This document shows positions 4,458 through 25,663 of a stretch of 25,663 nucleotides of DNA, in pieces. The first letter of the stretch is position 1, and each line of letters opens with the position of its first letter. The notes under the pieces are model-generated. The model was not told the origin of the DNA and did not search any database. It saw only the letters and a program-made list of their open reading frames with translations. Location: positions 1-25,663 of the forward strand of contig DASYFU010000175.1 in the NCBI GenBank assembly GCA_036498225.1, given 5' to 3'. Source of the DNA: Gaiellaceae bacterium (GTDB lineage Bacteria; Actinomycetota; Thermoleophilia; Gaiellales; Gaiellaceae). The position numbers and the translations under genes were made by a program.

Positions 4458-4459
4458 TG

Positions 4460-4885: not shown

Positions 4886-4915
4886 CGCGCACCCAATCGT
4901 GACAGATCGCGGGCT

Positions 4916-4921
4916 TAGACT
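4916..4921 (+). promoter_or_regulatory. Putative -10 (TAGACT) of a leaderless transcript
   Basis: TANNNT followed by 7 nt then ATG 4929; no SD. Confidence 0.55.
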
Positions 4922-4928
4922 CCGGCCG

Positions 4929-5399: not shown

Positions 5400-6685
5400 C
5401 CGAGCCGGACGGCTGGCGCCGTCTCCATCCGCTGTCGCCCGTCGTGCGCGGCGGCCGCGCGACGATCGCCATCGCGGTCATCCTCCTGCCGTCGGTCTTC
5501 GGCGCCCGCCGCTCGAGCAACACGGCGATCGAGCTCGGAGCCGTGGCGGTGATCGTCGGCCTCGGATTCGTGTCGTGGCTCGTCACGCGCTGGCGGGTCG
5601 ACGGCGACGACCTGCGCATCGAGACCGGGCTCATTCGGCGGCAGTCGCTTCGCTTTCCGCTTTCGCAGGTGCAGGCGATCGACGTCATTCGCCCCGGGCT
5701 CGCGCGGATATTCCGCGTCGCCGAGCTGCGGTTGCGCATGGGCGGTGCGACCGGAAAGACCGCCCGGCTTGCGTACCTGCACGAGCGCGAGGTCGAGCCC
5801 CTGCGCGACCGCCTGCTCGCGCTCGCCCGTGGGACTCCGCACGTCGACGAGGCGCAGGAGCTGCGCCGCGACGAGCGCGTGCTCGCGCCGGTTCCGACCG
5901 GCAGGCTGGTCGGGTCGATCCTCATCAGCGACGTCGGGATCCTGGCCGAGGCAGTGCTCGTCGGGCTCGTGCTCGGGATCGTGTTGGCGCCCTCCGCTGC
6001 CGCGGGCATCGCGAGCGGAGGCGCGGTCTGGATCCTTTCCGTCTTCCAGCTCGTCTGGCGTCGCTTCAACCAGGAGTACCGGCTCACCGTCGTCGAGATC
6101 GACGACGGCCTCGTGCTCCGCGGCGGGCTCGTCGGGCTCACGGCCGAGACGATCCGGCCGGGACGCGTCCAGGCGGTGCGCATGGTCGAGCCGATCGCGT
6201 GGCGTGCGCTCGGGTGGTGCCGTCTGGAAGTCGACCTCGCCGGTCGCCAGCGCGCGGAAGGCGAGGGGCGCGCGCAGCGGCGCTCGCTCCGTGCCGTGCT
6301 TCCCGTCGGAAGTCGCGCGGTCGCGGAGGAGCTGCTCGACCATCTCCTGCCTGATCGTCCGCGCGAGCAGACGCGGCCGCCGCGCCGCGCGGTGTGGAAG
6401 AGCCCGCTGCGCTACCGCATGCTCGCGTGGGGCCGCACGCCGACATGCGTCGCGACGACGAGCGGAAGGTTACGGCGGGCGACGAACTGGGTCGCGCTCG
6501 AGAAGGCGCAGAGCCTCCGCCGTGTGCAGGGCCCGCTTCAGCGCCGGCTGCGGCTCGCGAGCGTCCACGTCGACACGGCGGGCCGCAACGTGCACGCGGT
6601 CATCCGCGACCGTGACGTGGAGGAGGCGAACAATGCGCTCGTGGAGCTCGTTGCGTCGGCCGAGTCGGCTCGGCACGCGGCGTGA
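5396..6685 (+). CDS. Bacterial PH-domain membrane protein, YdbT-like (three PH repeats)
   Basis: WRRLHPLSP start; repeated RIETGL..R...PL..VQA/S motifs; ATGA coupling to the YdbS-like gene. Confidence 0.88.
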   Translation: MTEPDGWRRLHPLSPVVRGGRATIAIAVILLPSVFGARRSSNTAIELGAVAVIVGLGFVSWLVTRWRVDGDDLRIETGLIRRQSLRFPLSQVQAIDVIRPGLARIFRVAELRLRMGGATGKTARLAYLHEREVEPLRDRLLALARGTPHVDEAQELRRDERVLAPVPTGRLVGSILISDVGILAEAVLVGLVLGIVLAPSAAAGIASGGAVWILSVFQLVWRRFNQEYRLTVVEIDDGLVLRGGLVGLTAETIRPGRVQAVRMVEPIAWRALGWCRLEVDLAGRQRAEGEGRAQRRSLRAVLPVGSRAVAEELLDHLLPDRPREQTRPPRRAVWKSPLRYRMLAWGRTPTCVATTSGRLRRATNWVALEKAQSLRRVQGPLQRRLRLASVHVDTAGRNVHAVIRDRDVEEANNALVELVASAESARHAA

Positions 6686-6689
6686 GAAG

Positions 6690-6760
6690 CTGCGGGACAG
6701 GGATTCGAACCCCAACTTCCGGTTCCAGAGACCGGCGTCCTACCGTTAGACGATCCCGCA
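6690..6760 (-). tRNA. tRNA-Gln (anticodon CTG), CCA not encoded
   Basis: Cloverleaf: acceptor TGCGGGA/TCCCGCA with the U1-A72 pair typical of Gln, anticodon arm CCGGT-CTCTGGA-ACCGG, TTCGAAT T loop. Confidence 0.95.
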
Positions 6761-6774
6761 TCGGATCGCCTCGG

Positions 6775-6786
6775 ATTGTAGCGAGG
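6775..6786 (-). promoter_or_regulatory. Putative -10 region of tRNA-Gln promoter (CCTCGC-TACAAT)
   Basis: TACAAT 14 nt upstream of the tRNA 5' end. Confidence 0.65.
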
Positions 6787-7665
6787 TCAGACTTCGAGCC
6801 TGTACACGGGCACGAGCCGCCGCTCGGTCTCCGTGTCGATGTGCGCGACCACTTCGACGTACGGCTCCAGCCCGGAGCCGCGCAGCTTCGCGCGAAGGAG
6901 GCCGTCGACCTGGAAGAGCCCTGACGAGTTGTTCATCCGGATCTCGATCAGGATCGGTCGCTCCTCGCCGTCGGTGATCGTGACGTCCTCGATCGCCGCC
7001 GCCGAGAGCGAATGCATCGACACGCGCCCGCGCTCGAAGCCGATGCGGGATCGGCCCTTCGCCATGTCGAGCGCGTCGGCGACGCGCACGATGCCGGCGT
7101 CCGTCGTCAGTGGCTCGCCGTCGGCGCGGTGGCTGATGATCGCCTGCAGCACCTCGGAGACGACGACGGTGCGCTCGGGCTCGTCGTAGATGCCGGTCAG
7201 GAGCTCGCGCATCTTCGGCTCCGACAGGAACAGGCTGAAGTCCTCGTGGCCGTGGCGATGGATCGACATCCCGATGCAGTGCATGAGGGCGGCGAGCGTG
7301 ACGACCACTTCGGCGTCGTCGTTCGTCATGCCGTAGTCGCGCACCATCGCCGACTCCACGCCGTGCTTCGTCAGCTGCCGCAGGAGCTTCAGCGCGATGT
7401 TGGCGACGATCTGGACGTGCACCCACGAGTGGTCGTTGATCTCCATGCGCGCGACCGCGTTCACGTTCGACACGTGCCACCACGCCTTGACCTGCTTGTC
7501 CGCGTTTACGCGGTCGATGAGCGTCCGCAGCTTCCGGTTGCCGCGCACCGGCACGTTGATGCGCATGCGCTCGATCGCCTCGGCAGGGGTGAGCTGCGCC
7601 TCCCGTTCCGCCTCCACTGGGATGGGCTGGTCGATCCGCTCGGCGGTCTCCTTGTCGATCGCCAT
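6787..7665 (-). CDS. HD-superfamily metal-dependent hydrolase (COG3294-like) with HC in place of HD
   Basis: NDHSWVH ... LMHCIGMSIHRHGHE ... AIISH ... VRVADALDMAKGRSR pattern; ATG 7665. Confidence 0.8.
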   Translation of the reverse strand: MAIDKETAERIDQPIPVEAEREAQLTPAEAIERMRINVPVRGNRKLRTLIDRVNADKQVKAWWHVSNVNAVARMEINDHSWVHVQIVANIALKLLRQLTKHGVESAMVRDYGMTNDDAEVVVTLAALMHCIGMSIHRHGHEDFSLFLSEPKMRELLTGIYDEPERTVVVSEVLQAIISHRADGEPLTTDAGIVRVADALDMAKGRSRIGFERGRVSMHSLSAAAIEDVTITDGEERPILIEIRMNNSSGLFQVDGLLRAKLRGSGLEPYVEVVAHIDTETERRLVPVYRLEV

Positions 7666-7699: not shown

Positions 7700-8980
7700 A
7701 TGCATCCTGAGCACCCCGTCCGCCTGGTCGTCCGGGACGACCTCCGCCGGAACAGGGCATCGGTCTTCTTCCGACTGATCCTCGCGATCCCGCACTTCAT
7801 CTGGATCTTCCTCTGGTCGATCGCGATGATCTTCGTCGCCATCGCGAACTGGCTGGTCACGCTCGTGACCGGCACGCCGAACGCGACGATGCACGGCTGG
7901 AGCTGCGCGTACGTCCGCTACTCGCTCCACCTCAACGCCTATCTGTACCTCGTCGGGAACCCGTACCCGGGCTTCATGGGCGAAGAGGGGGAATACCCGA
8001 TCGACGTGCGGCTGCCGGCACCGGCGCCGCAGCCTCGGTGGAAGACGTTCTTCCGCCTGTTCCTCGCCGTTCCGGCGCTCCTGCTCACCACGATGCTCGG
8101 CGGCGGAACCGGGTTCACCTACACGTCGAGGAGCGGCGGCTCGCGGTACTCGGGCTTCAGCGCGCGCGGGGCACTCGCTGCCGTGTGCGCGTTTCTCGGG
8201 TGGTTCGCGATCCTCGTGAAGGGCGAGATGCCGAAGGGCCTGCGCGACGCCTCCGCCTACGGCGTCGGCTACGGGGCGCAGACGGTCGCGTACCTCCTCT
8301 TCGTCACCGACCGGTACCCGGACGCCGATCCGACGGCGATGCTCGACGGCGTCGGGCGCCCGCCCGTTCACGTCGTTCGCGTGGTCGGCGACGCGGACGA
8401 TCTCCGCCTCTCGCGGGTGCTGGTGTTCTTCCGCCTCTTGCTTGCGATCCCCCACATCGTGTGGCTCGTTCTGTGGGGCGCCGCGACGATCATTGCGGTC
8501 ATCGCGAACTGGTTCGTGACGCTGTTCAGCGGGACGCCCGCACGTTCGCTGCACGCGTTCGTGTCGCGGTACGTGCGCTATCAGCTGCACGTGTACGCGT
8601 TCCTCTATCTCGCCGCGAATCCGTTCCCCGGCTTCACCGGCGCGCCCGGCAGCTACCCGCTCGACCTCGAGCTGCCCGGTCCGGCGCGACAGAACCGGTG
8701 GAAGACGGGGTTCCGGATCATCCTCGCCGTCCCGGCGTTCATCGTCAGCAGCGCCCTCGGTTACGGCCTCGGCGTCACCGCCTTCCTCACCTGGTTCGTC
8801 GGCCTCGCGCGCGGTTCAGCGCCGTGGGGGCTCCGCAACTTCGCCGCGTACGCGCTCCGCTATCAGGCGCAGGCGAACGCGTACGCCTCGCTCCTGACGG
8901 ACGCGTACCCGCACGCGAGCCCGCTCGAAGGTGCGCCGACACCGCAGCACGAGTTCGCCGAAGCAGCCGAAGCGACGTGA
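7700..8980 (+). CDS. DUF4389-like membrane protein with internal tandem duplication
   Basis: FFRLILAIPH...NWLVTLVTG...RY...AYLYL...YPGF module occurs twice; ATG 7700. Confidence 0.82.
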   Translation: MHPEHPVRLVVRDDLRRNRASVFFRLILAIPHFIWIFLWSIAMIFVAIANWLVTLVTGTPNATMHGWSCAYVRYSLHLNAYLYLVGNPYPGFMGEEGEYPIDVRLPAPAPQPRWKTFFRLFLAVPALLLTTMLGGGTGFTYTSRSGGSRYSGFSARGALAAVCAFLGWFAILVKGEMPKGLRDASAYGVGYGAQTVAYLLFVTDRYPDADPTAMLDGVGRPPVHVVRVVGDADDLRLSRVLVFFRLLLAIPHIVWLVLWGAATIIAVIANWFVTLFSGTPARSLHAFVSRYVRYQLHVYAFLYLAANPFPGFTGAPGSYPLDLELPGPARQNRWKTGFRIILAVPAFIVSSALGYGLGVTAFLTWFVGLARGSAPWGLRNFAAYALRYQAQANAYASLLTDAYPHASPLEGAPTPQHEFAEAAEAT

Positions 8981-12413: not shown

Positions 12414-14194
12414 GCCACGTCCGCCCGCGCCTCGACTGCGTCCGCGAACTGCCGCTCGAGCAGGCCGTGCTCGTAAATCTCGCGGTAGACCGCGCTCGTG
12501 CCGACGAGCTCGTCGTGCGTCCCGCGCGCGGCGATGCGCCCGTCGGCGAGGACGACGATCTCGTCCGCGAGCGCGATCGTCGAGAGGCGGTGCGCAATGA
12601 TCAGCGTCGTCCGGCCCTCCATGGCGGTGCGGAGCCCGGTTCGGATCTGCGCTTCGGTCGACGCGTCGACCGACGCGGTCGCATCGTCGAGGATGAGGAC
12701 GCGCGGGTCGACCGCGAGCGCGCGCGCGATGGCGATCCGCTGGCGCTGGCCGCCTGAGAGCGTGATGCCGCGCTCGCCGATGACGGTGTCGTAGCCCTGC
12801 GGCAGCCGCTCGACGAACTCGTGCGCCTGCGCGAGCCGCGAGACGCGCTCGACCTCCCCGTCGGAGATGCCGGCGCTGCCGAACGCGATGTTCTCCCGGA
12901 CGGTGGCGGAGAAGAGGAACGGATCCTGTGCGATCACGCCGATCGCGCTGCGGAGCGAGGTGAGCGTCACGTCGCGGACGTCCTGGCCGTCCACGGTGAT
13001 GCGTCCGGCGGTCGCGTCGTAGAAGCGCGGGACGAGCGAGGTGAGCGTCGTCTTGCCCGAGCCCGTGTGGCCGATGAGCGCGACCGTCCGCCCCGCCGCG
13101 ATGTCGAGATCGATGTCCTGGAGTACGGGCCGGCCCGGCTGGTACTCGAACGAGACGTGCTCGAAGCGGACACGACCGGGGCCTGGCCCCAGACGTGTCG
13201 CGGCGGGACGATCGGCGATCTCCTCCGGCTCGTCGATCACCTGAAAGATGCGCTCGCCGGAGGCCGTCGCCCTCTGCGCCTGGCCGATCCACATGCCGAG
13301 CGAGCGCAACGGCGTGACGAGCATGCCGAGGTAGAGGAAGATCGCGCTGAAGCTGCCCGGCGTGAGGTCGCCGCGCGCGACCATGCGGGCGCCGACGAGC
13401 AGGACGAACGCCTGCGCGAGCAGTGGCACGAAGGAGATGAGCGGCACGTACGTCGCGCGCTGGCGGTTCGCCTTCAGCGTCTGGTCGAAGACGAGCTCCG
13501 ACCGGTACTCGAACTTGTCCTCCTCTGCCGGCTCCTGCGCGAAGGCCTTCACGACGTGGACGCCGACGATGTTCTCCTCCGCGACGGTGGCGACGTCGGC
13601 GAGGCGCTGCTGCACATCGCGCAGCGTCGGATGCGCAATGTGGCTGTACCGGTACGCGAGGACCACGAGCGGCGGCGTGATCGCGAGCGCGATGAGCGCG
13701 AGCTCCCACTGGAAGAAGAAGAGAACGACGGTCACCGAGACGACGGTGAGCACGTTCTGGAAGAAGAAGATGAGGCCGTACCCGAGGAAGAAGCGGACGC
13801 CCTGCAGGTCGACGGTCGCACGCGACATGAGCTGCCCGGTCTGATGGCGGTCGTAGAAGCCGTACGACAGACGGACGAGGCGCGCGTACAAGTGACTGCG
13901 CATGTCCATCTCGACGTCGAGCGCCTGCTTGCCCGAGAGGAGGCGCCGCCCGAGCATGAACGCGGCCCGGGCGAAGCCGAGGGCGACGATCTCGCCGACG
14001 GTCAGCCAGAGGCGATGGTGGTCGTGGTGGATGAGCGCGCCGTCGATGACATTGCGGCCCGTAAGCCAGACAAGCGCGATCTGCGCCGCCTGCGAGCCGA
14101 CGGCGAGGACGATGGAGATAGCGACGCCGACCCGGTAGGGACGGAGGAAGCCGAGCAGACGCACGAACGTCGCCCGGTACGGGACGGCACTCAC
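12410..14194 (-). CDS. ABC exporter subunit (TMD+NBD), heterodimer partner A
   Basis: Walker A GHTGSGKTT, signature LSGGQ, Walker B VLILDDATASVD, H-loop IAHRLST. Confidence 0.93.
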   Translation of the reverse strand: MSAVPYRATFVRLLGFLRPYRVGVAISIVLAVGSQAAQIALVWLTGRNVIDGALIHHDHHRLWLTVGEIVALGFARAAFMLGRRLLSGKQALDVEMDMRSHLYARLVRLSYGFYDRHQTGQLMSRATVDLQGVRFFLGYGLIFFFQNVLTVVSVTVVLFFFQWELALIALAITPPLVVLAYRYSHIAHPTLRDVQQRLADVATVAEENIVGVHVVKAFAQEPAEEDKFEYRSELVFDQTLKANRQRATYVPLISFVPLLAQAFVLLVGARMVARGDLTPGSFSAIFLYLGMLVTPLRSLGMWIGQAQRATASGERIFQVIDEPEEIADRPAATRLGPGPGRVRFEHVSFEYQPGRPVLQDIDLDIAAGRTVALIGHTGSGKTTLTSLVPRFYDATAGRITVDGQDVRDVTLTSLRSAIGVIAQDPFLFSATVRENIAFGSAGISDGEVERVSRLAQAHEFVERLPQGYDTVIGERGITLSGGQRQRIAIARALAVDPRVLILDDATASVDASTEAQIRTGLRTAMEGRTTLIIAHRLSTIALADEIVVLADGRIAARGTHDELVGTSAVYREIYEHGLLERQFADAVEARADVA

Positions 14195-14198
14195 CTTC

Positions 14199-14807
14199 TC
14201 AATGTAGACGCGAGAGCTCCTCTCGCACGAGCGTGAGCGCGCGCTCGAGCCGCACGCGATTCGCCGGAACGTTCGGCCAGCTGCTCGCTCCCGAGGGATG
14301 CGGCAGCGGGACGACGGGGACGCCGTCGAGCTCGTACCGCTCGCCGATGCACTCGGTCAGCGATGCGGGAAGGCCGAGGAGCTGCCGAAGCGCGAGGCCG
14401 CCCGCCGTGACGATCAGCCCTGGTCGGAGGAGCTCGAGCTCCCACGGGCGCCAGAACGCGCACAGCTCTTGCTCACGCGGTGACGGCGCGCGGTCGCCGC
14501 GGCCCGACGCGGCGCGACCGGGATAGCAGCGCGTCACCGATGCGCAGTAGAACGTCGCGTAGAACGCGTCCTCGTCCAGCTCGAGCCAGCGCCGCAGCGT
14601 CTGTCCGGCGCGACCGCGCCACGGCAAGCGTTCGTCGCCCTCGACGATGCCGGGCGCCTGGCCGTACAGGTACGCATGTTGCTGCGCGAACGGCGCGCGC
14701 ACCGGCAGCGACTCGAGCGGGAAACCGGCCTCCGTGCACGCGCGGCAGCCCGATAGGTCGCGGTGGAGCGATGCGATCGACCGATACGCTGTTTTTCGAG
14801 TGGTCAT
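14199..14807 (-). CDS. Uracil-DNA glycosylase superfamily protein (family 4/5-like, probable Fe-S)
   Basis: CRAC, GQAPG, RCYPG, ELC and LPHPSG motifs; ATG 14807 (alternative TTG 14840). Confidence 0.88.
   Translation of the reverse strand: MTTRKTAYRSIASLHRDLSGCRACTEAGFPLESLPVRAPFAQQHAYLYGQAPGIVEGDERLPWRGRAGQTLRRWLELDEDAFYATFYCASVTRCYPGRAASGRGDRAPSPREQELCAFWRPWELELLRPGLIVTAGGLALRQLLGLPASLTECIGERYELDGVPVVPLPHPSGASSWPNVPANRVRLERALTLVREELSRLH
14201..14206 (-). promoter_or_regulatory. Putative -10 (TACATT) of leaderless ABC-operon transcript
   Basis: TANNNT-N6-GTG, embedded in the last codons of the UDG-like gene. Confidence 0.6.
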
Positions 14808-15285
14808 GCGCGATCTCTTCTCGTTTCCGAATCCCGTCAACGAGACGTCCGCACGGCTCGTCGCGGGCGTCGTCGCCGTGCTCGCCGTCGCGGCGATCGC
14901 ATTCCAGCAGGGCTGGATCCTGCCCGTGCTCGCCTACGGCTTCGTCGCGCGCGCCCTGACCGGGCCGAAGCTCAGCCCGCTCGCGCTCGTGGCGACGCGC
15001 GTCGTCACGCCGAGGCTGCACGTCGTGCATCGGTTCTCGCCCGGGCCGGCGAAGCGCTTTGCGCAGACGATCGGCGCCGTCTTCACGACGACGGCCGCGC
15101 TCCTCTGGTACGTCGCCGCCCAGCACACGGCAGCGCTCGTCCTCGCGGGGGTCATCGCCGTGTTCGCGTCGCTCGAGTCCGGGCTCGGGCTCTGCGTCGG
15201 CTGCAAGGCGTTCTACCTCGGCATGCGCCTCGGGATCGTCCCGCCGAGCGTCTGCGAGGACTGCGCGCCCTTTATCTCGGCGTAG
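14806..15285 (+). CDS. DUF4395-like membrane protein
   Basis: LFSFPNPVNETSARLVAG, PAKRFAQTIG, LESGLGLCVGC, C-terminal CEDC. Confidence 0.85.
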   Translation: MRDLFSFPNPVNETSARLVAGVVAVLAVAAIAFQQGWILPVLAYGFVARALTGPKLSPLALVATRVVTPRLHVVHRFSPGPAKRFAQTIGAVFTTTAALLWYVAAQHTAALVLAGVIAVFASLESGLGLCVGCKAFYLGMRLGIVPPSVCEDCAPFISA

Positions 15286-15288
15286 TCT
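15283..15288 (+). promoter_or_regulatory. Putative -10 (TAGTCT) for leaderless formimidoyltransferase mRNA
   Basis: TANNNT-N6-GTG; the TAG is the DUF4395 stop codon. Confidence 0.6.
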
Positions 15289-15294
15289 CTGCGC

Positions 15295-16173
15295 GTGCTC
15301 CCGCTCGAGAGCGTCCCGAACTTCTCCGAAGGCCGCGATACCGCGGTGATCGCCGAAATCGGTGATGCGCTCGCGCGCTACGCACGGCTGCTGGACGTCC
15401 ATGCGGACGCCGACCACAACCGGTCGGTCTTCACCATCGTCGGCGACGAGGCCGCGATCGTCGATGCGCTTCTCGCCGGCATTGCGGTCGCGCAGGAGCG
15501 CATCGACCTCCGCGGGCACGAGGGAGTGCATCCCCGCATCGGCGCCGCCGACGTCGTCCCCGTGATCGCGATACGTCCCGAGGATGCCGAGCTCGCACGG
15601 GAGACAGCTCGGATCGCCGCCGAGCGCATCGGCAACGAGCTCGAGCTCCCGGTCTTCCTGTACGGCGAGGTCGGCGACGGACGCGCGCCCGCGTTCTTCC
15701 GTCGCGGCGGGACGGACGAGCTGCAACGCCGCATCGACGAAGGCGAGCTTGCGCCGGACTTCGGCCCGCCGCGGCTCGATCCGGCAGCGGGGGGCGTCAT
15801 CGTCGGCGCGCGCCGGCCGCTCATCGCCTTCAACGTCAACCTCGCGCACGCCGACGTCGATGCGGCGCGGGAGATCGCCCGCGTCGTGCGCGAGCGCGAC
15901 GGCGGCTTTCCCGGCGTTCGCGCGCTCGGGCTCGAACTGCCTCAGGCGGGCCACGCGCAGATCAGCATGAACGTCGAGGACTGGGAAGCGGCGGCGCTGC
16001 ACGACATCGTCGCTGCGATCGAGCGCGAGGCGGCCGCGCGTGGCGTCGAGCTCGCGGGCGCCGAGCTCGTCGGGCTCATGCCGGCGGGTGCGGCCGCCGC
16101 CGCGGCCGGCGCGCTGTTGCGCATCCAGGGCTTCGACGCGTCACACGTTCTCGAGCTGCGCCTGCTCGAGTAG
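15295..16173 (+). CDS. ftcd: Glutamate formimidoyltransferase (stand-alone FT domain)
   Basis: LESVPNFSEGRD, DADHNRSVFT, GVHPRIGAADVVP, GARRPLIAFNVNL, QISMN. Confidence 0.93.
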   Translation: MLPLESVPNFSEGRDTAVIAEIGDALARYARLLDVHADADHNRSVFTIVGDEAAIVDALLAGIAVAQERIDLRGHEGVHPRIGAADVVPVIAIRPEDAELARETARIAAERIGNELELPVFLYGEVGDGRAPAFFRRGGTDELQRRIDEGELAPDFGPPRLDPAAGGVIVGARRPLIAFNVNLAHADVDAAREIARVVRERDGGFPGVRALGLELPQAGHAQISMNVEDWEAAALHDIVAAIEREAAARGVELAGAELVGLMPAGAAAAAAGALLRIQGFDASHVLELRLLE

Positions 16174-16842
16174 CGCGCGACCGACGACGGCGCCCTCGAG
16201 GCCGAGCCCGGCGAGCGCACCCAGGTCCCCCTTGCTGCGGACGCCGCCGGCCGCCAGGACGGGGCCTCCGAAGCGGCGCGCGACACGCCCCATCAGCACG
16301 AGGTCGGGACCGGCGAGCGTCCCGTCCCGGTCGATCGCCGTGCAGAGGAGCCGCGCGACGCCCGCGGCGACGCACCGGTCGACCGCGTCGTCGACGGAGA
16401 GCCCGCTGCCGTGCTCCCAGCCGCGGACGCGCACCTCGCCGTCGCGGACGTCGACGGCGACGACGAGCCGGTCGCCGAGCGCGTCGACGTACGCCTCCGG
16501 GCCTTGCTCGAACGCGGCCGTCCCCACGATGACGCGCGCAGCCCCGGCGCCGAGGAGCGCGTACGCGTCGGCCGGGCTGCGCACGCCGCCGCCGAGCTGG
16601 AGCGGAACAGGGTCGATCGCGGCTGCGAGGCTGCGCGTCAGCTCGATCGGGGCGCCGCCGTCCCGAGCGGCATGGAGGACGACGACGTGGAGCAGGGGAG
16701 GGCGCGCCCGGGCAAAGCGCCGTGCGAGCTCCACGGGATCGCCGGCTTCACGCGCAACCGCGTCGAAGTCGCCCTTCTCGAGCCTGACGGCCCGGCCGTC
16801 GAGGACGTCCACGGCGGGTATGAGTTGAAAGCCTTGCTGCAC
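16141..16842 (-). CDS. hisA: ProFAR isomerase HisA
   Basis: LIPAVDVLDGRAVRLEKG, LQLGGGVR, RVIVGTAA, VAVD, TAIDRDGTLAGPD, AAGGV, VVGRAL. Confidence 0.92.
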   Translation of the reverse strand: MQQGFQLIPAVDVLDGRAVRLEKGDFDAVAREAGDPVELARRFARARPPLLHVVVLHAARDGGAPIELTRSLAAAIDPVPLQLGGGVRSPADAYALLGAGAARVIVGTAAFEQGPEAYVDALGDRLVVAVDVRDGEVRVRGWEHGSGLSVDDAVDRCVAAGVARLLCTAIDRDGTLAGPDLVLMGRVARRFGGPVLAAGGVRSKGDLGALAGLGLEGAVVGRALLEQAQLENV

Positions 16843-16862
16843 CGTGTTACCATGCTAACACG
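16843..16862. promoter_or_regulatory. 20-bp palindrome: probable HisR operator overlapping divergent leaderless promoters
   Basis: CGTGTTACCATGCTAACACG, 18/20 self-complementary; fills the whole gap between the two start codons. Confidence 0.8.
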
Positions 16863-17156
16863 ATGGAGCCACGACATTGGCCGACAAAGGAACATCGAGA
16901 CCTCTTCGAGACGGTCGCCTCGCTCCGGACGAAGGAGGAGGCGCAGCGCTTCCTCCGGGATCTCTGCACGCGGGCGGAGCTGGACGCGATGGCGCACCGC
17001 TGGCAGGTGGCGCGGCTCCTGGACGAGGGTCTGCCGTACCTGGAGGTGGCGCGCAAGGCGCACGCCTCGACGACGACGGTGACGCGCGTCGCGCAGTGGC
17101 TGCGCCGCGGCGAGGGCGGGTACCGGCTGGCGCTCCAGCGGCGGCGAAAATCCTGA
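16863..17156 (+). CDS. TrpR-like YerC/YecD family regulator (probable HisR)
   Basis: FLRDLCTRAELDAMAHRWQVARLL...YLEVARKAHASTTTVTRVAQWLRRGEGGY, the YerC/YecD signature; first gene of the his operon. Confidence 0.9.
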   Translation: MEPRHWPTKEHRDLFETVASLRTKEEAQRFLRDLCTRAELDAMAHRWQVARLLDEGLPYLEVARKAHASTTTVTRVAQWLRRGEGGYRLALQRRRKS

Positions 17157-17983
17157 AGATCGCCGTCCCCTCGAAGGGCCGCCTGCGCGATCCCGCGATC
17201 GCGCTCCTCGAGGACGCCGGCCTCGGCCCGGAGACGCCCGGCGACCGCGCGCTCGCGTTCCCGTGCCGGAACGCGCCGGTCGAGGCGCTCCTTGTGCGCG
17301 CGGACGACATCCCGGAGTACGTGCAGGACGGCGTCGTCGACTGTGGCATCACCGGCCTCGACATCGTGCGCGAACGCGGCGCGAACGTCACCGAGCTGCA
17401 GACGCTCGGCTTCGGGGCCTGCACCCTCGAGGTCGCCGTCCAGGAGGAGTCGGACGTCGGCGCGCCGGACCAGCTCGACGGCGCGCGCATCGCGACGAGC
17501 TTCCCCCGCCTCGCCCGCGAGCTCATGCCGGTCTCGATCGAGCTCGTCGACGTGCACGGCTCGGTCGAGCTCGCCCCGCGCCTGGGCCTCGCCGACGCGA
17601 TCGTCGACCTCGTCTCGAGCGGGAGCACCTTGCGCACGAACGGGCTGCGTTCGATCGGCGTGCTGCTCGCCTCGGAGGCCGTTCTCATCGGGCCGCCCGA
17701 GCCGCGGGACGACGCGGTGCAGCTCGCGGGCGTGTTCCGGAGCGTCGTCGACGCGCGCGCGACGCGCTATCTGATGTTGAACGCGCACGAGGATTCGCTG
17801 GAGGCGATCTGCGCGCTCGTGCCCGGCTCGCGCGCGCCGAGCGTGCTGCCGCTGTCGGAGCCGGGGATGGTGGCCGTGCACAGCCTCGTTCCGGCCGCGG
17901 ACATCTGGCGCTTGCTGCCCGAGCTCGAGGCCGCGGGTGCGTCGTCGATTCTTCTCGTCCCCGTCGAGCGCATGCTCGGATGA
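17153..17983 (+). CDS. hisG: ATP phosphoribosyltransferase, long form (start probably CTG 17153; alternative GTG 17096)
   Basis: LKIAVPSKGRL, VRADDIPEYVQDGVVDCGITGLD, GSVELAPRLGLADAIVDLVSSGSTLRTNGL, plus C-terminal regulatory domain. Confidence 0.94.
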   Translation: MKIAVPSKGRLRDPAIALLEDAGLGPETPGDRALAFPCRNAPVEALLVRADDIPEYVQDGVVDCGITGLDIVRERGANVTELQTLGFGACTLEVAVQEESDVGAPDQLDGARIATSFPRLARELMPVSIELVDVHGSVELAPRLGLADAIVDLVSSGSTLRTNGLRSIGVLLASEAVLIGPPEPRDDAVQLAGVFRSVVDARATRYLMLNAHEDSLEAICALVPGSRAPSVLPLSEPGMVAVHSLVPAADIWRLLPELEAAGASSILLVPVERMLG

Positions 17984-18954
17984 CGATCGTCGAAGACGTG
18001 AAGGCGCGCGGCGAGGAGGCCGTGCGCGAATGGGCGCTGCAGCTCGACGGCGTCGAGCCCGCGCGCGCGGAGCCGGACGGCGAGCTGCCCGAGGAAGCCA
18101 TCCTTGCACTCGCCGATCGCGTGCGCCGCTGGCACGAGGCGCAGCGGCCGGCCGACGTGCGGCTCGAGGTCGAGCCGGGCGTGCAGCTCGAACGCCGGTG
18201 GGTGCCGCTCGACTCCGTCGGCGTGTACGTGCCGCGCGGTCTCGTCTCGACGCTCGTCATGTGCGCGGTGCCTGCGCAGGTCGCAGGCGTGCGCCGGATC
18301 GTCGTGTGCACGCCGCCCGACGGCGCGGGCCTCGTCGCCCGCGCCGCGGAGCTGCTCGGGATCGACGAGGTCTGGGCGCTCGGCGGCCCGCAGGCGATCG
18401 GATACCTCGCGTACGTCGCGCGCGTGGACAAGATCGTCGGTCCCGGCGGCCCGTACGTGAACGACGCGAAGCTCGAGGTCGCGCGCGACGTCGCGATCGA
18501 CCTTCCCGCTGGTCCGTCCGAGGTGGTCGTCGTCCTCGGCGCGGGCGGCGACCGCCGGCTCGCGGAGCTCGAGCTCGCCGCGCAGGCCGAGCACGGCCAC
18601 GAGGCGGTCTGCCGCATCGTGGCCACGCTCGAGGAGGCTGAGGCGCTCGCGCCCGAGCATCTTGTGCTCCTCGGCGATGCCGAAGCACTTGCGCCGCGGG
18701 TCCGCAACGCCGGCGCGGTGTTCGTGGGCGAGTGGTCGCCCGTTCCGAGCGGCGATCTCGGAACAGGCGCCAATCACGTTCTCCCCACGGGCGGCTGGGC
18801 GCGCTCGGTCGGCGGCCTCGGCCTCGAGACGTTCATGAAGCCGATCACGATCCAGCGGCTGACGCAGGAGGGGCTCGAGCGCGTGCGGCCGACGGTCGAG
18901 GCGCTCGCCGCCGTCGAGGGACTGCCTGCGCACGCGGCAGCGGTGCGGCGATGA
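17980..18954 (+). CDS. hisD: Histidinol dehydrogenase, shortened (324 aa)
   Basis: VKARG, SVGVYVP, GGPQAI, DKIVGPG, IDLPAGPSEV, QAEHG, APEHL, GD..GANHVLPT, AHAAAV. Confidence 0.92.
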   Translation: MTIVEDVKARGEEAVREWALQLDGVEPARAEPDGELPEEAILALADRVRRWHEAQRPADVRLEVEPGVQLERRWVPLDSVGVYVPRGLVSTLVMCAVPAQVAGVRRIVVCTPPDGAGLVARAAELLGIDEVWALGGPQAIGYLAYVARVDKIVGPGGPYVNDAKLEVARDVAIDLPAGPSEVVVVLGAGGDRRLAELELAAQAEHGHEAVCRIVATLEEAEALAPEHLVLLGDAEALAPRVRNAGAVFVGEWSPVPSGDLGTGANHVLPTGGWARSVGGLGLETFMKPITIQRLTQEGLERVRPTVEALAAVEGLPAHAAAVRR

Positions 18955-20462
18955 GAGCGCTCGGCGCTGGGTTCCAGATGTACGGCTGGGCGCCGTCGAC
19001 GGCGGAGCTCGCGCACCGCGCAGGTCTCGATCCGGTCGAGATCCTGCGCTTCGACGGCAACGTGCCGGCGCTGCCGCTCCCGACGTCACGGCCGGCGGCG
19101 ATCGCATCTGCGCTCGCGCGCGTGAACGAGTATCCGCACGGCGGGTATCCCGACATCCATGAGGCGATCGCCGGGTACGCCGGCGTCGAGCCCGAGAACG
19201 TCGTGCTCGGCGCAGGCGCCGACGACCTGATCATGCTCGTCGCGCGCGCCTACGCGGGCGCGGGGGACACCGTCTCCGTTCCCGAGTCGCCGACGTATCC
19301 GCTCTTCCGCATCGCCGCCCAGCTCGCCGGCGCCGACGTGGGCGACGACGAGCCCGTGTTGACGTTTGCGTGTCGGCCGGCGAACCCGACCGGTGCGCTC
19401 GAGGCGATTCCCTCGGCGCGGCCGCTCGCCGTCGACGAGGCGTACTTCGAGTACGCCGACGACCCAGGTGCGGTCGGCCTGATCGACGACGACGTGGTCG
19501 TCATCCGAACGTTCTCGAAGCTCTTCGCCCTCGCGGGCGCACGCATTGGCTACGCGCTCGCCTCGCGCGAGGTCGCCGCGGAGCTGAACGCACGGCAAGC
19601 TCCTGCGCAGGTTTCGACGCTGTCGGTCGCGCTCGCGCTCGCGGCGCTCGCGTCGCCACCCGATGTCCGGCCGGTGATCGAGGAGCGAGAGCGACTTGCG
19701 ACCGAGCTGCGCACGCTCGGGTACGAGCCCGTCGCCTCCCGCGCGAACTTCGTCTACGTCCCGGTGGACGATCCCGAGTCGGTCGGCGACCGGCTGCTCG
19801 CGGCCGGCTGCGTCGTCCGCGTGTTCGAGAGCGCCGTGCGTATCTCGGTACGCGACCGCGAGGACGACGACGTGCTGCTCGCCGCGCTCGCAGGCGAGCC
19901 GCCGTCGCAGGGGCGTCGGAGTCGTCACGTGCGCTCGACCGTCGAGACGACGCTCCGCGTACGGCTCACGCTGGACGGCGCCAGCCGCGTGCGCGTCGCG
20001 ACAGGCTCAGGGTTGTACGACCACTTCTTCGAGCAGCTCGCATTCCACGCCGGCTTCGACCTCGTGCTCGAGGGCAGCGGCGATCTCGAGACGGGGGACC
20101 ATCACACGGCAGAGGACGCGGCCATCGCGCTCGGCGAGGCGTTCGACCTGGCGCTCGGCGACCGCAAGGGAATCGCGCGCTACGGCGACGCGGTCGTCGT
20201 CATGGACGACGCCCGCGCGAGCGCGGCCGTCGACCTGGGCGGCCGGCGCCACACGAGCATCGTGCTCGAGCACGACCCCGGGCTCGCGAAGCACACGCTC
20301 ACGAGCTTCGCCGACAACGCACGCATCGCACTGCACGTCGAGGCGACCGGCGACGACCCGCATCACGTCGCCGAGGCGGCGTTCAAGGCGACGGGGCGCG
20401 CGCTGCGCGCCGCGATCCGGAGTGAGGGCGACGTGCTCCCGTCGACGAAGGGCGTGATGTGA
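18951..20462 (+). CDS. hisC: Fused histidinol-phosphate aminotransferase / imidazoleglycerol-phosphate dehydratase (HisC-HisB), 503 aa
   Basis: N-terminal DEAY, NPTG and RTFSKLFALAGARIGY (PLP Lys); C-terminal (from about 19914) DHHTAED, HHVAEAAFKA and PSTKG; no stop codon between the domains. Confidence 0.92.
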   Translation: MRALGAGFQMYGWAPSTAELAHRAGLDPVEILRFDGNVPALPLPTSRPAAIASALARVNEYPHGGYPDIHEAIAGYAGVEPENVVLGAGADDLIMLVARAYAGAGDTVSVPESPTYPLFRIAAQLAGADVGDDEPVLTFACRPANPTGALEAIPSARPLAVDEAYFEYADDPGAVGLIDDDVVVIRTFSKLFALAGARIGYALASREVAAELNARQAPAQVSTLSVALALAALASPPDVRPVIEERERLATELRTLGYEPVASRANFVYVPVDDPESVGDRLLAAGCVVRVFESAVRISVRDREDDDVLLAALAGEPPSQGRRSRHVRSTVETTLRVRLTLDGASRVRVATGSGLYDHFFEQLAFHAGFDLVLEGSGDLETGDHHTAEDAAIALGEAFDLALGDRKGIARYGDAVVVMDDARASAAVDLGGRRHTSIVLEHDPGLAKHTLTSFADNARIALHVEATGDDPHHVAEAAFKATGRALRAAIRSEGDVLPSTKGVM

Positions 20463-20992
20463 CGACGGTCGCGATCGCGCGCTACGGCGCCGGCAACGTC
20501 CGCTCGGTCGAGCTCGGCGTGCGCCGGCTCGGCGCTGAGGTGATCGACGACCTCGAGGCCGCCGATCTCGCGGTGCTGCCCGGAGTCGGCTCGGCGCGGT
20601 CGGCGATGGAGGGCCTGGGCGCGTCGGCAGACATCCTCCGCGCACGCCACGAGGATGGGCGAGCGATTCTCGGCATCTGCCTCGGCCTCCAGCTCGCGCT
20701 CGACGAGAGCGAGGAGGACGGCGGCGTCGTGGGGCTCGGGCTCGTGCCAGGCCGCGCGGTGCGCCTCGAGGCCGAACGCGTCCCGCGCATCGGCTGGGCG
20801 CACGTCGAGCCGGGCGGCGAGGCGTACTGGTTCGCGCACTCGTACGAAGCCGTGACCGAGTCGACCGTGGCCACGAGCGAGGGCCACGCCGCCGTCGTCG
20901 AGCACGGCTCGTTCGTCGGCGTGCAGTTCCATCCCGAGAAGAGCGGCGCTGCAGGCAGCCGCTTTCTGGAGCAATGCCTCTCCCGCGTCTGA
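20459..20992 (+). CDS. hisH: IGP synthase glutamine amidotransferase subunit
   Basis: [21 protein letters not shown] (catalytic Cys), PRIGW, FAHSY, QFHPEKS. Confidence 0.95.
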
Positions 20993-21708
20993 TCCCGTGC
21001 CTCGACGTCGCCGGCGGGCGCGTCGTCAAGGGCGTGCGCTTCCGTCAGCTGCGCGATGTCGGCGACCCCGTCGAGCTCGGCGCGGCGTACTCCGACGGCG
21101 GCGCGGACGAACTCGTCTTCCTCGACATCTCTGCGACGGTGACGTCGACTGCGGCCGCAGCTGCCGTCGCGGCCCAGGTCGCCGAGCACGTGACCATCCC
21201 GTTCACGTTCGGCGGAGGGATCCGCACGGTCGACGACGCAACGTCGCTGCTCGAGGCGGGCGCCGACAAGATCAGCGTGAACTCGGCGGCGCTCGCACGG
21301 CCAGACTTGATCGAGGAGCTTGCGCGTGCTCTCGGCAGCCAGGCCGTTGTCGTCGCCATCGACACCGAGGGCGGGCGCGTCCGCTCGCATGCGGCGACGC
21401 GCGACGCCGCGCGCGACACCGTCGAATGGGCGAAGGAGTGCGAACAGCGCGGTGCAGGCGAGCTGCTCGTCACGTCGATCGATCGCGACGGCACGCAGGA
21501 CGGGTACGACCTCGAACAGCTCGCCGCGCTGAGCGACGCCGTCTCGCTTCCGGTCATCGCGTCGGGCGGTGCCGGCAGCGCGCACCATGTAGCGGACGCG
21601 CTCGAGGTGTCGCAGGCCGCGCTCCTCGCGTCCATCCTGCACGAGGATCCGGCCCGGCTCGTCTCGCTGCGCACGGAGCTGAAGGAGCTGGGCGTATGCC
21701 TCCGCTGA
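20974..21708 (+). CDS. hisF: IGP synthase cyclase subunit
   Basis: [68 protein letters not shown]. Confidence 0.96.
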
Positions 21709-22238
21709 AGGCCGCGATCGTGCAGGACGCGGACGACGGCCGCGTGCTCATGCTCGCGTGGATGGACGCTGAGGCGGAGCGCCTGACGCGCGAGACCGGC
21801 GAGGCGTGGTTCTGGAGCCGCTCGCGCGAAAAGCTGTGGCGCAAGGGCGAGACGTCCGGGAACGTCCTCCACGTCGAGGAGATCCGCGACGACTGCGACG
21901 GTGACGCGCTTCTCCTGCGTGTGCATCCCGACGGCCCCGCGTGCCACACCGGCTCGCGCTCGTGCTTCGCGCCGGCGCTGTGGCGGACGATCTCCGAGCG
22001 GAAGGCCGAGCGGCCCGACGGCTCGTACGTCGTCTCGCTCCTCGACGCCGGAATCGCGCGCTGCGCGCAGAAGGTGGGGGAGGAGGCGGTCGAGACCGGG
22101 ATCGCCGCCGTTGCCGGCGACCGCGAAGGTCTCGTCGCGGAGGCGGCCGATCTCGTATTCCACCTGTATGTACTGCTGGCGGCTGCGGACGTCGACCTCT
22201 CGGAGGTCGAGGACGAGCTGGCGCGCCGAGCGAAGTAG
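21696..22238 (+). CDS. hisIE: Bifunctional PR-AMP cyclohydrolase / PR-ATP pyrophosphatase
   Basis: [35 protein letters not shown], then KVGEEAVE and EAADLVFH; SD GAAGGAG upstream of ATG 21696. Confidence 0.95.
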
Positions 22239-22241
22239 ATT
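22236..22241 (+). promoter_or_regulatory. Putative -10 (TAGATT) for leaderless hutH mRNA
   Basis: TANNNT-N6-GTG; the TAG is the hisIE stop codon. Confidence 0.6.
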
Positions 22242-22247
22242 CTCCGT

Positions 22248-23762
22248 GTGCCTCCGGTCGCGCTCACCGGCGACGACCTGACCGTCGCCGACGTCTGGGA
22301 CGTCGCCGTCGAACGACGGCCCACCGAGCTCACCGATGCCGCGCGCGCCAGGATGCGCGCCGCCCGCGAGGTCGTCGAGCGCGCAGCGCACGGCGCCCGT
22401 GAGCACACGTACGGCGTCAACACGGGCTTCGGCCGCTTCGTCTCGCGCTCGATTCCCGAGGAGCTGACCGAGGAGTTGCAGCTGCGCCTCCTGCGCTCGC
22501 ACGCGTGCGGCGTGGGCGAGCCGTATCCGGACGAGATCGTGCGCGCAGCGATGCTCCTTCGTGCGAACACGCTCGCGAAGGGGAACTCCGGTGCGCGCGT
22601 CGAGACCGTCGAGCTCGTGCTCGCGTGCCTCGACCGCGGCGTCGTTCCGGTCGTGCCTGCGCGCGGAAGCGTCGGGGCATCCGGCGATCTCGCACCGCTC
22701 GCGCATCTCGCGCTTCCGCTCGTCGGCGAGGGCGAGGCGTTTATCGACGGTGAGCGCGTCCCGGGCCTCGAAGCGCTGACCCGCGTCGGGCTCGAGCCCG
22801 TGCAACTCGAGGCAAAGGAAGGGCTGTCGCTCATCAACGGGACGCAGTTCATGGCCGCGTACTGCGCGCTCGGTCTCGTGCGGGCGCGGCGGCTCGCGCA
22901 TGCCGCCGACGTCGCGTGCGCGCAGTCGCTCGAGGCACTGCAGGGATCGCGCACGTCGTTCCTGCCGGAGATCCACGCGCTCCGGCCTCTGCGCGGGCAG
23001 ACGGCGTCCGCCGCGCATGTGCTCGAGTTGCTCGACGGCTCCGCGATCATCGAATCGCACCGCTGGTGTGACAAGGTGCAGGACGCGTACTCGCTCCGTT
23101 GCGCGCCGCAGGTGCATGGCGCGTCGCGCGACCTGCTCGACTACATCGACTACACGATCTCGGTCGAGCTGAACGCCGCGACCGACAATCCGCTCGTCCT
23201 CGTCGAGGAAGACGCGCTCGTCTCGAACGGCAACTTCCACGGCCAGCCGCTCGCATTCGCGCTCGACGTCATGGCGATGGCCGTCGCCGAGCTCGCGTCG
23301 ATCTCGGAGCGTCGTGTCGAGCGCCTCGTGAACCCGAACCTGTCCGACGGCCTGCCCGCGTTCCTCACGAGCGAGGGCGGGCTCAACAGCGGGTTCATGA
23401 TTCCCCAGTACGTGGCCGCATCGCTCGTCTCCGAGAACAAGGTGCTCGCGCATCCGGCGTCGGTGGATTCGATCCCGACGAGCGCCGGGCAGGAGGATCA
23501 CGTGTCGATGGGCAACGCAGCTGGGCTGAAGGTGTGGCAGGTGCTCGCGAACTGCGAGAGCGCGCTCGCCATCGAGCTGCTCGCCGGCGCGCAGGGCGTC
23601 GAGTTCCTCGCGCCGCTCGAGCCCGGAGTCGGCGTGCGCGCTGCGCGTGCGTTCGTCCGGGAGCTCTCGCCGCGACTGAAGGACGACCGCTCTCTCGCTC
23701 CCGACATCGAAGCAGTGGCTGCGGCGATTCGCAACGGCTCGCTCGAGAAGGCCGTCGCGTGA
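22248..23762 (+). CDS. hutH: Histidine ammonia-lyase
   Basis: [32 protein letters not shown] (MIO-forming ASG), [33 protein letters not shown]. Confidence 0.97.
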
Positions 23763-25444
23763 GCGTGACCACATCGCGCGTCGAAGCGCTGTGCGGCGAC
23801 CTGTCGCGCATCCGCGCGCCGCGGGGGACGGAGCTGAACGCGCGCCAGTGGTCGACCGAGGCGCCGCTGCGCATGCTCCTGAACAACCTCGACGCCGAGG
23901 TGGCCGAGAAGCCGGAGGAGTTGATCGTCTACGGCGGCTCGGGAAAGGCCGCGCGCAATCACGACGCGTTGCGCGCGATCGTCGCGACGCTGCTCGAGCT
24001 CGCGCCCGACGAGACGCTGCTCGTCCAGTCGGGCAAGCCGGTCGGCGTCATGACGACGCACGAAGGCGCGCCGCGCGTGCTCATCGCGAACTCGCTGCTC
24101 GTTCCACGCTGGGCGACCTGGGACGAGTTCCGCCGCCTCGAGGCGCTCGGCCTGACGATGTTCGGGCAGATGACCGCGGGCTCGTGGATCTACATCGGGA
24201 CGCAGGGCATCCTGCAGGGGACGTATCAGACGTTCGCGGCCGCGGCGGAGAAGCACTTCGGCGAGCCGGATCTACGCGGGCGGACGATCCTGACGGCCGG
24301 CCTCGGCGGCATGGGCGGTGCGCAGCCGCTCGCGGGAACGATGGCGGGCGCGGCGATCCTGTGCGTCGAGGTCGATCCGCATCGCATCGAGCGTCGCCTC
24401 GAGACGCGCTACCTCGACGAGGCGACGGAGTCACTCGACGACGCGCTCGCGCGCGTTCGCGCCGCGGCCGCGGAGAAACGCGCGCTCTCGGTCGGCCTGC
24501 TCGGGAACGCCGCCGACGTCGTGCCTCGCCTCGCCGCGCGCGGTGAGCATTTCGACCTCGTCACCGACCAGACCGCCGCGCACGATCCGCTCAACGGCTA
24601 CGTCCCGCGCGGGCACTCGGTCGATGAGGCTGACGAGCTGCGCGCGTCCGATCCGGACGAGTACCTGCGCCTCGCGCGCGCGTCGATCGCAGCGCACGTC
24701 GAGGGGATGCTCGAGTACGTCCGGCGCGGTGCGTATGTTTTCGATTATGGCAACAACCTTCGAGGTGAGGCCCGTGAAGCCGGCGTAGAGGAGGCCTTCT
24801 CATACCCGGGCTTCGTCCCGGCCTATATCCGGCCGCTGTTCTGTCGCGGGATCGGGCCGTTTCGCTGGGCAGCGCTGTCCGGGGACCCGACCGACATCGC
24901 GGCGATCGACGCGGAACTGCGCGGGTTGTTCCCGGACGACGCGTTGCTCCAGCGCTGGCTCGAGCTCGCGCCCGGACGCGTCGCGTTCCAGGGGCTGCCC
25001 GCGCGGATCTGCTGGCTCGGCTACGGCGACCGCGCGAAAGCCGGTCTCGCGATCAACGAGCTCGTGCGGAGCGGCGCGGTGAGGGCGCCGGTGGTGATCG
25101 GGCGCGACCACCTGGACGCAGGATCCGTGGCGTCGCCGTATCGCGAGACCGAGGCGATGCGCGACGGCTCGGACGCGATCGCGGACTGGCCGATCCTGAA
25201 CGCGCTCGTCAACGTCGCCGCGGGAGCGACGTGGGTGAGCGTGCATCACGGCGGCGGGGTCGGGATCGGCAACGCGATCCATGCCGGGATGGTCGTCGTC
25301 GCGGATGGCACCGACGCGCAGGCGGAACGGCTCGAGCGCGTGCTGACCACCGACCCGGGCACGGGCGTGATGCGGCACGCCGACGCGGGTTATCCGGAGG
25401 CGATCGAGGCCGCTGAGGCGGGCGGCCTGAAGATCCCTTCGTGA
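23759..25444 (+). CDS. hutU: Urocanate hydratase
   Basis: [77 protein letters not shown]. Confidence 0.97.
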
Positions 25445-25663
25445 GGCTGCTCCTTCGCAATCTGGCCCAGCTCGCGACTCCGGCCGGCACGCATGCGCCA
25501 CTCCGTGGGGCGGCGCTCGGCGACGTCCAGGTGCTCGAGGACGCCTTCCTCCTGTGCAGCGGGGACATGATCGATGCCGTCGGGCGGATGAGCGCGTTGC
25601 GTGCGCTCGAGGACGACGTCGTCGAAGTCGACTGTCGCGGGCTGTGTGCGGTCCCCGGCCTCG
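25441..25663 (+). CDS. hutI: Probable imidazolonepropionase, N-terminal fragment (runs off window)
   Basis: GTGA coupling to hutU; reads [14 protein letters not shown]...LRG...[14 protein letters not shown], a typical amidohydrolase N-terminus just before the D-x-H-x-H motif. Confidence 0.82.

Follow-up and report, generated by a model that had tools for sequence, protein, structure and literature searches.

The stretch of DNA analysed here, referred to as the window, is the entire 25.7-kb contig DASYFU010000175.1 (25,663 nucleotides) of a Gaiellaceae bacterium, in which genes for making histidine (his) run head to tail into genes for degrading it (hut). The source metagenome-assembled genome (MAG) comprises 2.3 Mb in 455 contigs, with 88.8% completeness and 6.6% contamination, and its close relatives, known from soil and peat, are uncultured members of the Gaiellaceae (Gaiellales, Thermoleophilia, Actinomycetota). 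Genes were called by profile scans with Pfam and NCBIfam models and by inspection of start and stop codons (Table 1). The his genes span 16141-22238 and are flanked by catabolic genes on both sides, ftcD to the left and hutH-hutU-hutI to the right, and hutH starts 9 nt past the hisIE stop codon on the same strand. These arrangements had been described in an earlier note made from the sequence alone, and the profile scans and codon inspection confirmed them. The joint between hisIE and hutH extends well beyond this assembly: it is found in a clade of at least 15 species, where it has a single origin and represents a derived state, and hutH most likely starts at a promoter of its own that lies exactly at the joint.

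Within the his module, hisA is encoded on the minus strand and converges on ftcD, with the 3' ends of the two genes overlapping by 33 nt; it forms the left edge of the inserted module and holds the same position in every his module examined. The account of the locus given in the earlier note stood with respect to the gene set and its flanks, and left out the minus-strand position of hisA, the regulator gene hisR, the hisC-hisB fusion and the 20-bp palindrome at the head of the operon. The his genes are present in single copy both in the MAG and in the his-linked clade and are a housekeeping set; a second his copy or a paralogous pathway was considered for the MAG, and none is present. On the catabolic side, hutH, hutU, hutI and ftcD are all present, in agreement with the tetrahydrofolate (THF)-dependent route that had been proposed.

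The junction itself was examined for signals that could separate the two pathways. A consensus scan found no terminator at the joint, the minimum free energy of 22150-22350 was unremarkable against shuffled sequence (z -1.27), and Rfam gave no match in 14000-25663 at E<=1, so that the absence of a hairpin reported earlier was borne out. A search for a Rho-type C-rich tract gave only a mild C excess over the first 100 nt of hutH (GC skew -0.16), which is uninformative. Near hutH, neither a conserved -35 element nor an operator was found. The joint carries the hexamer TAGATT at -12 to -7 relative to the hutH GTG, and its TAG is the stop codon of hisIE. The region upstream of hutH accordingly has the sequence features of a leaderless gene, namely TANNNT at 22236-22241, a 6-nt spacer, a GTG start and no Shine-Dalgarno sequence. 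Viewed as a single polycistronic his-hut operon, the stretch lacks a terminator between hisIE and hutH and contains a putative internal promoter, the -10-like hexamer, where such an operon should contain none. hisIE and hutH also share a reading frame, with TAG, three sense codons and GTG in succession, and because of this TAG-N9-GTG geometry, read-through of the stop codon could yield a HisIE-HutH fusion; the shared frame is probably incidental.

This hexamer is conserved across the genus. Of the 32 distinct regions found ahead of hutH, 30 contain TAGAnT-N6-GTG (with a spacer of 7 in one), and the other two carry near variants; within the 30, the T, A, G, A and last T never vary (2 bits each), with flanking columns below 1.2 bits. 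The motif is present whether the upstream gene is ftcD, hisD, hisIE or an unknown open reading frame (ORF), and the TAG is the stop codon of hisIE in the his-linked clade and of ftcD or hisD in other genomes. It also occurs in genome G011, in which the upstream neighbour is a major facilitator superfamily (MFS) transporter on the opposite strand, so that hutH must start its own transcript there. The same design precedes ftcD, with TAGTCT, TAGGCT or TAGGGT in the genus and GATAAT-N7-ATG in a sister family; since ftcD and hutH each appear to use it, the ancestral hut locus would already have comprised at least two transcription units. The genus-wide conservation of the hexamer, including the case of an opposite-strand neighbour, makes an own promoter for hutH the most likely arrangement. 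It is also the simplest reading of the joint, and it was missing from the earlier note, which had offered a choice between an unknown block to read-through and a deliberate flux through histidine.

Table 1. Features of the his-hut locus and its left border in the window.
Feature	Position	Strand	Evidence and remarks
DUF4395 gene	14647-15285	+	PF14340 115 bits; TAG stop at 15283-15285; left neighbour of ftcD kept across the genus (synteny)
TAGTCT-N6-GTG before ftcD	15283-15297	+	TAG is the DUF4395 stop; -10-like hexamer 6 nt before the start
ftcD, glutamate formimidoyltransferase (last hut step, THF route)	15295-16173	+	TIGR02024 259 bits (cut-off 221); PF07837 and PF02971
hisA, phosphoribosylformimino-aminoimidazole carboxamide ribotide (ProFAR) isomerase	16141-16842	-	TIGR00007 182 bits, under the 229-bit cut-off but best family
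20-bp palindrome CGTGTTAccatgcTAACACG, putative HisR operator	16843-16862	.	Whole hisA/hisR intergenic gap
hisR, YerC/YecD TrpR-family regulator, 97 aa	16863-17156	+	PF01371 81.9 bits (cut-off 27); TIGR02531 72.6 bits (cut-off 42.2)
hisG, long form	17096 or 17153 to 17983	+	TIGR00070 193 bits; HisG_C TIGR03455 77.5 bits
hisD, compact form	17980-18954	+	TIGR00069 318 bits; ATGA overlap onto hisG
hisC-hisB (imidazole glycerol phosphate dehydratase) fusion	18951-20462	+	Two domains in a single ORF
hisH	20459-20992	+	TIGR01855 129 bits
hisF	20974-21708	+	TIGR00735 278 bits; PF00977 239 bits
hisIE, bifunctional	21696 (ATG) to 22238 (TAG 22236-22238)	+	NF002747 224 bits (cut-off 187)
hisIE/hutH joint TAGATT-CTCCGT-GTG	22236-22250	+	hisIE stop plus ATT, 6-nt spacer, hutH start
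hutH, histidine ammonia-lyase	22248 (GTG) to 23762	+	PF00221 636 bits; single copy
hutU, urocanate hydratase	23759-25444	+	TIGR01228 904 bits; GTGA overlap onto hutH
hutI, imidazolonepropionase, 5' end only (74 aa)	25441-25663, cut by contig end	+	GTGA overlap onto hutU

The survey of the joint covered every species representative of the genus (133 genomes, 28 of them high-quality); each was searched for hisIE and for hutH, and adjacency of the two genes was scored inside the order. hutH was detected in 122 of the 133 genomes (26 of the 28 high-quality ones) and hisIE in 66 (16 of the 28). The two genes abut in 15 of the 133, with gaps of 9-16 nt except for 185 nt in G125; for one further genome, G001, the left joint alone was seen. 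The loci fetched from the his-linked group have the same gene order throughout, and two members (G125 and G136) have no ftcD to the left of hisA. By comparison, 51 of the 66 hisIE-positive genus genomes carry the his module and hutH on separate contigs, and the sister families sampled show no linkage of his and hut. Maximum-likelihood analysis of HutH groups the his-linked genomes in a single clade (ultrafast bootstrap/SH-like approximate likelihood ratio test 99/98) nested within the genus, with a basal split between G125 plus G136 and the rest. A look-up of sequencing runs containing this sequence listed no RNA run. The joint was further recovered from reads of independent origin: four DNA runs yielded short Logan contigs, of which a single one, from an independent soil run, bridges 21872-22430. 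The coherent HutH clade and the independent bridging contig together establish that the joint is genuine and arose once.

These observations also bear on the notion that the joint is an artefact, either of a chimeric contig in a contaminated MAG or of a misjoin between two populations. The 455 contigs and 6.6% contamination could be taken to point that way, as could a second hutU end, 81% identical and with another downstream order, on contig C133 of the same bin. Against this, 14 further species genomes have the joint, among them long-read bins with contigs of 0.2-1.0 Mb, the bridging contig comes from an independent study, and the clade is coherent on the HutH tree; we therefore regard an artefact as exceedingly improbable. 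A chimeric assembly in particular is ruled out by the 14 other genomes together with the bridging contig.

The direction of change is evident from the relatives. Inspected genus members outside the clade and two sister families share the order ABC-ABC (two ATP-binding cassette genes, minus strand), DUF4395, ftcD, hutH, hutU and hutI, and the unlinked his modules keep the internal order hisA (minus), hisR-hisG-(hisD)-hisCB-hisH-hisF-hisIE. The boundary between ftcD and hutH takes five states, which are direct adjacency (20-170 nt, the state of many relatives), an opposite-strand MFS transporter, two unknown minus-strand ORFs (G002), hisD alone (G015, G019 and G084) and the entire his module. 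In G002, G011, G069 and G100 the boundary is occupied by unknown ORFs or by an MFS transporter. Given this variable boundary and the gene order of the relatives, the supercluster is a derived insertion into a permissive site. In an empty-site check for translocation, the sequences that border the unlinked G008 his module proved to be scattered in the clade genomes. In the three genomes with hisD alone at the boundary, this gene has moved out of the his module; its ATG directly abuts the ftcD TAG (TAGATG) in G015 and G084, and in G019 hisD is preceded by a hairpin and by its own TAGACT-N6-GTG, a duplicated promoter-plus-start cassette.

The spacing at the joint appears to have changed after the insertion. 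G125, the sole clade member with a long spacer, has 185 nt between hisIE and hutH (locus positions 8706-8890) containing two strong hairpins (z -2.5), one of them followed by a U-rich stretch, and then TAGAGT-N6-GTG. Several unlinked his modules likewise have hairpins just past hisIE. Because of the G125 spacer and these hairpins, a spacer between hisIE and hutH was probably lost after the module had been inserted.

At the other end of the his operon, a candidate control system was identified. As had been noted earlier, no HutC or HutP gene occurs among the window ORFs scanned; by virtue of hisR, the window does hold a histidine regulator. The HisR ORF matches PDB 3G1C (E 6.9e-14), which is treated as E. 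eligens HisR by Ashniev et al. (2022, PMC9413887), and hisR is single copy in the genome and is the first gene of the his operon both in the window and in the examined modules where it was detected, those of a sister family included. HisR is a histidine-responsive repressor of his operons that recognizes a 20-bp palindromic operator, cacTTTAn6TAAAgtg, and its gene often stands first in the operon with the operator just upstream (PMC9413887); for R. gnavus HisR, histidine-stimulated DNA binding has been studied by electrophoretic mobility shift assay with purified protein. In the window, the space separating the start codon of hisA (GTG, 16842, minus strand) from that of hisR (ATG, 16863) consists wholly of the palindrome CGTGTTAccatgcTAACACG, which shares bases with a -10-like hexamer on each strand (TACCAT and TAGCAT), and a promoter-like site at 16825-16853 is the only plus-strand match of a promoter scan. 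The palindrome occurs once in the window and is kept in linked and unlinked his modules of the genus. A sister family has TTTTAgcatgcTAAAA (TTTTA-N6-TAAAA) in its place, which matches the published HisR consensus core TTTA-N6-TAAA; the window operator agrees with the consensus in its 7+6+7 architecture and TTA-N6-TAA core and differs from it in the outer half-site CGTGTTA. From the protein family, the gene position and the operator footprint, we infer that HisR controls the his genes via this putative operator. No HisR-like operator was found near hutH or ftcD at <=3 mismatches in the window, and the two extra HisR-like sites genome-wide are weak, with 12 expected by chance. The sole one-mismatch copy of the palindrome in the MAG, one of these two, lies on contig C336 (2519-2536), where it falls on the stop codon of purF, ahead of an unknown ORF and of purM; it is probably a chance occurrence.

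The explanation that we favour, and consider moderately probable, is that a HisR-controlled his module was inserted once at a permissive boundary between two hut units and that hutH retained its own promoter. The ancestral locus would have been DUF4395-ftcD-hutH-hutU-hutI, with ftcD and hutH each transcribed as leaderless mRNAs from promoters whose -10-like hexamers begin with TAG. A self-contained module (hisA on the minus strand; hisR-hisG-hisD-hisCB-hisH-hisF-hisIE on the plus strand) would then have entered the ftcD/hutH boundary and left the hutH promoter element intact, after which a terminator-bearing spacer past hisIE would have been lost in most descendants, with the hisIE TAG becoming the first half of the hutH hexamer. 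At present, the his genes would be transcribed from a compact divergent hisA/hisR promoter pair, repressed by HisR at the palindrome when histidine is plentiful, and the conserved motif and its geometry suggest that hutH-hutU(-hutI) is transcribed from the retained joint promoter as a leaderless mRNA. With no terminator present, his transcripts could continue into hut; on such read-through transcripts hutH would be poorly translated, because its GTG would be internal and has no Shine-Dalgarno sequence, and would depend at best on re-initiation 9 nt after the hisIE stop. Long-form HisG enzymes are feedback-inhibited through a regulatory domain, and the HisG encoded here carries this domain at its C-terminus, which would further limit futile cycling. 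Overall, the locus looks like two units placed side by side rather than a designed make-and-burn pathway.

Several considerations weigh against this explanation. The transcription starts, read-through, HisR binding and leaderless translation that it invokes are read from sequence, the surroundings of hutH yielded no hut regulator, operator or conserved -35 element, and the hexamer could be part of another type of cis-element. Moreover, the joint has stayed short (9-16 nt) and free of a terminator in 14 of the 15 lineages, which shows that the cells at least tolerate read-through and that selection could even favour it, and re-initiation 9 nt past the hisIE stop could make the read-through transcripts productive. 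Histidine genes have also entered the boundary at least two times, once as hisD alone (in three genomes) and once as the whole module, which hints at selected linkage rather than neutral insertion.

In an alternative explanation, his and hut form one regulated unit, either a histidine homeostat or an interference switch, or with low co-expression serving as an overflow valve. As an interference switch, the locus would respond to scarce histidine by sending his polymerases across the joint, where they would occlude the hutH promoter and leave hutH as an internal cistron with no Shine-Dalgarno sequence; when histidine is plentiful, his would be off, the hutH promoter would be free and hutH would be carried on a well-translated leaderless mRNA, giving reciprocal control by one repressor. 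In line with this, the short joint lacks a terminator in 14 of 15 members, though several unlinked modules have hairpins past hisIE, and polymerases reading through must cross the hutH -10 hexamer, which overlaps the hisIE stop. The his operon opens with hisR and its putative operator, the scans turned up no regulator dedicated to hut, and the boundary has recruited histidine genes twice. This case, however, is wholly one of geometry. The same hutH motif occurs in more than 100 species' worth of lineages with no his genes upstream and so did not evolve for such a purpose, G125 does well with two hairpins in between, and no HisR-like site lies near hutH. We regard a single regulated unit as unlikely. 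Its most specific form is doubtful: here the single repressor HisR would set synthesis and degradation oppositely by promoter occlusion, with no hut regulator, and loss of the ancestral terminator (kept in G125) would be the adaptive step.

The flux reading of the earlier note treats the locus as a co-transcribed pathway operon that deliberately channels phosphoribosyl pyrophosphate (PRPP) through histidine to urocanate and formimino-THF, as a supply of one-carbon units or urocanate. The common strand, the 9-nt gap and the missing terminator would be compatible with such a channel, as would ftcD and the FTCD_C-like cyclodeaminase domain present in the genome. On the other hand, the module has the repressor system typical of biosynthetic his operons and a HisG with a feedback domain, and since the genome has no other his set, the module is needed for protein synthesis. 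The hut genes, for their part, keep a putative promoter found in many relatives with no detectable hisIE, and about half of the genus has hut with no hisIE found, which indicates that hut serves the use of external histidine; the route would presumably also cost many ATP per one-carbon unit. Nothing in the analysis favours a deliberate flux from PRPP through histidine to urocanate, and we consider it very unlikely.

The distribution of the biosynthetic genes carries its own implication. hisG and hisIE were not found in about half of the genus, 12 of the 28 high-quality genomes included, and the hisI domain was not found in 20 of 52 sampled, mostly high-quality Gaiellaceae genomes, some of them single-contig. 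In a class-wide search of 301 Thermoleophilia genomes, hisI was, among the matches listed, nearly universal in most of the other families sampled. Because hisIE is missing in about half of the genus while hutH is found in 122 of the 133 genomes, this pattern suggests widespread histidine auxotrophy alongside histidine scavenging and catabolism.

The individual his proteins show several features of their own. Relatives have an ATGA over the hisR stop at the start of hisG, and the window reads ATCCTGA (17150-17156) with no canonical start there, so hisG may start at CTG 17153 or at GTG 17096. HisD has about 324 aa, compared with 434 in E. coli; alignment to E. coli HisD (1K75) places the difference in about 35 N-terminal residues and about 50 residues past QAEHG, and the protein is of the same length across the genus. 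The motifs QAEHG, PEHL and NHVLPT and the C-terminal His motifs (catalytic and zinc, by the same alignment) are kept. In genus members and in a sister Gaiellales family, tblastn alignments continue through the hisC-hisB junction and meet no stop codon; the fusion is therefore not peculiar to this MAG.

With regard to the hut proteins, HutU scores higher with TIGR01228 than with the thiourocanate models (701 and 677 bits). The 74-aa hutI fragment itself gave no NCBIfam match; its identification comes from 65-85% identity to the gene that relatives carry behind hutU and from the Amidohydro_1 and Amidohydro_3 domains of the full-length C133 copy. A hut regulator (HutC, HutP or HutR) was found neither among the window ORFs scanned nor in the ftcD-hutH ORFs of three relatives nor in the C133 hutU-hutI stretch, in a genome that is itself incomplete. 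C133 (168-3393), with its second version of the hutU end, has 3.2 kb between hutU and hutI encoding ApbE, a ferric-reductase-like membrane protein, a NuoF-like protein with flavin mononucleotide and 4Fe-4S sites and a ferredoxin, and no regulator; this redox module is reminiscent of flavinylated reductases. Its order equals that of G016 (3600-6800), whereas in the window hutI directly adjoins hutU, and the bin may hold two related populations. Elsewhere in the window, tRNA-Glu(CTC) and tRNA-Gln(CTG) lie on the minus strand at 283-356 and 6689-6760, and a uracil-DNA glycosylase (UDG)-family gene (14199-14933) is divergent from DUF4395.

Anabolic and catabolic genes for one amino acid are rarely placed head to tail with no terminator, and a literature search on the hisIE-hutH joint or on histidine metabolism in Gaiellales returned nothing relevant. 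A joint of this kind fixed across at least 15 species of an abundant uncultured soil lineage amounts to a natural experiment in tolerating or exploiting such a conflict, at a boundary that repeatedly accepts cargo between ftcD and hutH. For the Gaiellales, whose genetics is almost undeveloped, the locus also provides concrete regulatory elements, among them a putative HisR operator doubling as a 20-bp divergent promoter region and a putative leaderless promoter design in which a stop codon recurs within the -10 element.

In Enterobacteria, Pseudomonas and Bacillus, his and hut are usually unlinked and oppositely regulated; 51 of the 66 hisIE-positive genus members resemble this classical separation, and the his-linked clade differs from it by its 9-nt abutment. 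Leaderless units of actinobacteria such as Mycobacterium, Streptomyces and Corynebacterium have a -10 TANNNT about 6-7 nt upstream of a start site that coincides with A/GTG. hutH resembles them in its TAGAnT at -12 to -7 of the GTG, with no Shine-Dalgarno sequence and no conserved -35; it differs in that the start site here is predicted from sequence and in that the first three bases of the hexamer are the stop codon of the upstream gene (DUF4395, ftcD, hisD or hisIE). Operons for the THF route, with hutH-hutU-hutI and ftcD, have been described for some Firmicutes and Bacteroidota, and the usual routes use HutG or HutF. The present hut genes share with these operons the complete set of hutH, hutU, hutI and ftcD, adjacent in relatives, and a true urocanase; unlike them, they have no HutC, HutP or HutR found nearby, ftcD and hutH each have an apparent leaderless-type promoter of their own, and in the his-linked clade a 6-kb biosynthetic module interrupts the locus.

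The his half of the locus recalls the HisR-regulated his operons of Firmicutes, some Proteobacteria, Synergistetes and Coriobacteriia (PMC9413887), with a small TrpR-fold regulator gene placed first and a 20-bp palindrome with a TTA-N6-TAA core directly upstream. The taxon is new, as the Actinobacteria in that work were only Coriobacteriales and Eggerthellales, in which hisR was never clustered with his (PMC9413887). The half-site here is GTGTTA rather than cacTTTA, the putative operator constitutes the entire divergent hisA/hisR gap, and, in a further departure from the operons described there, the his operon enters hutH with no terminator in between.

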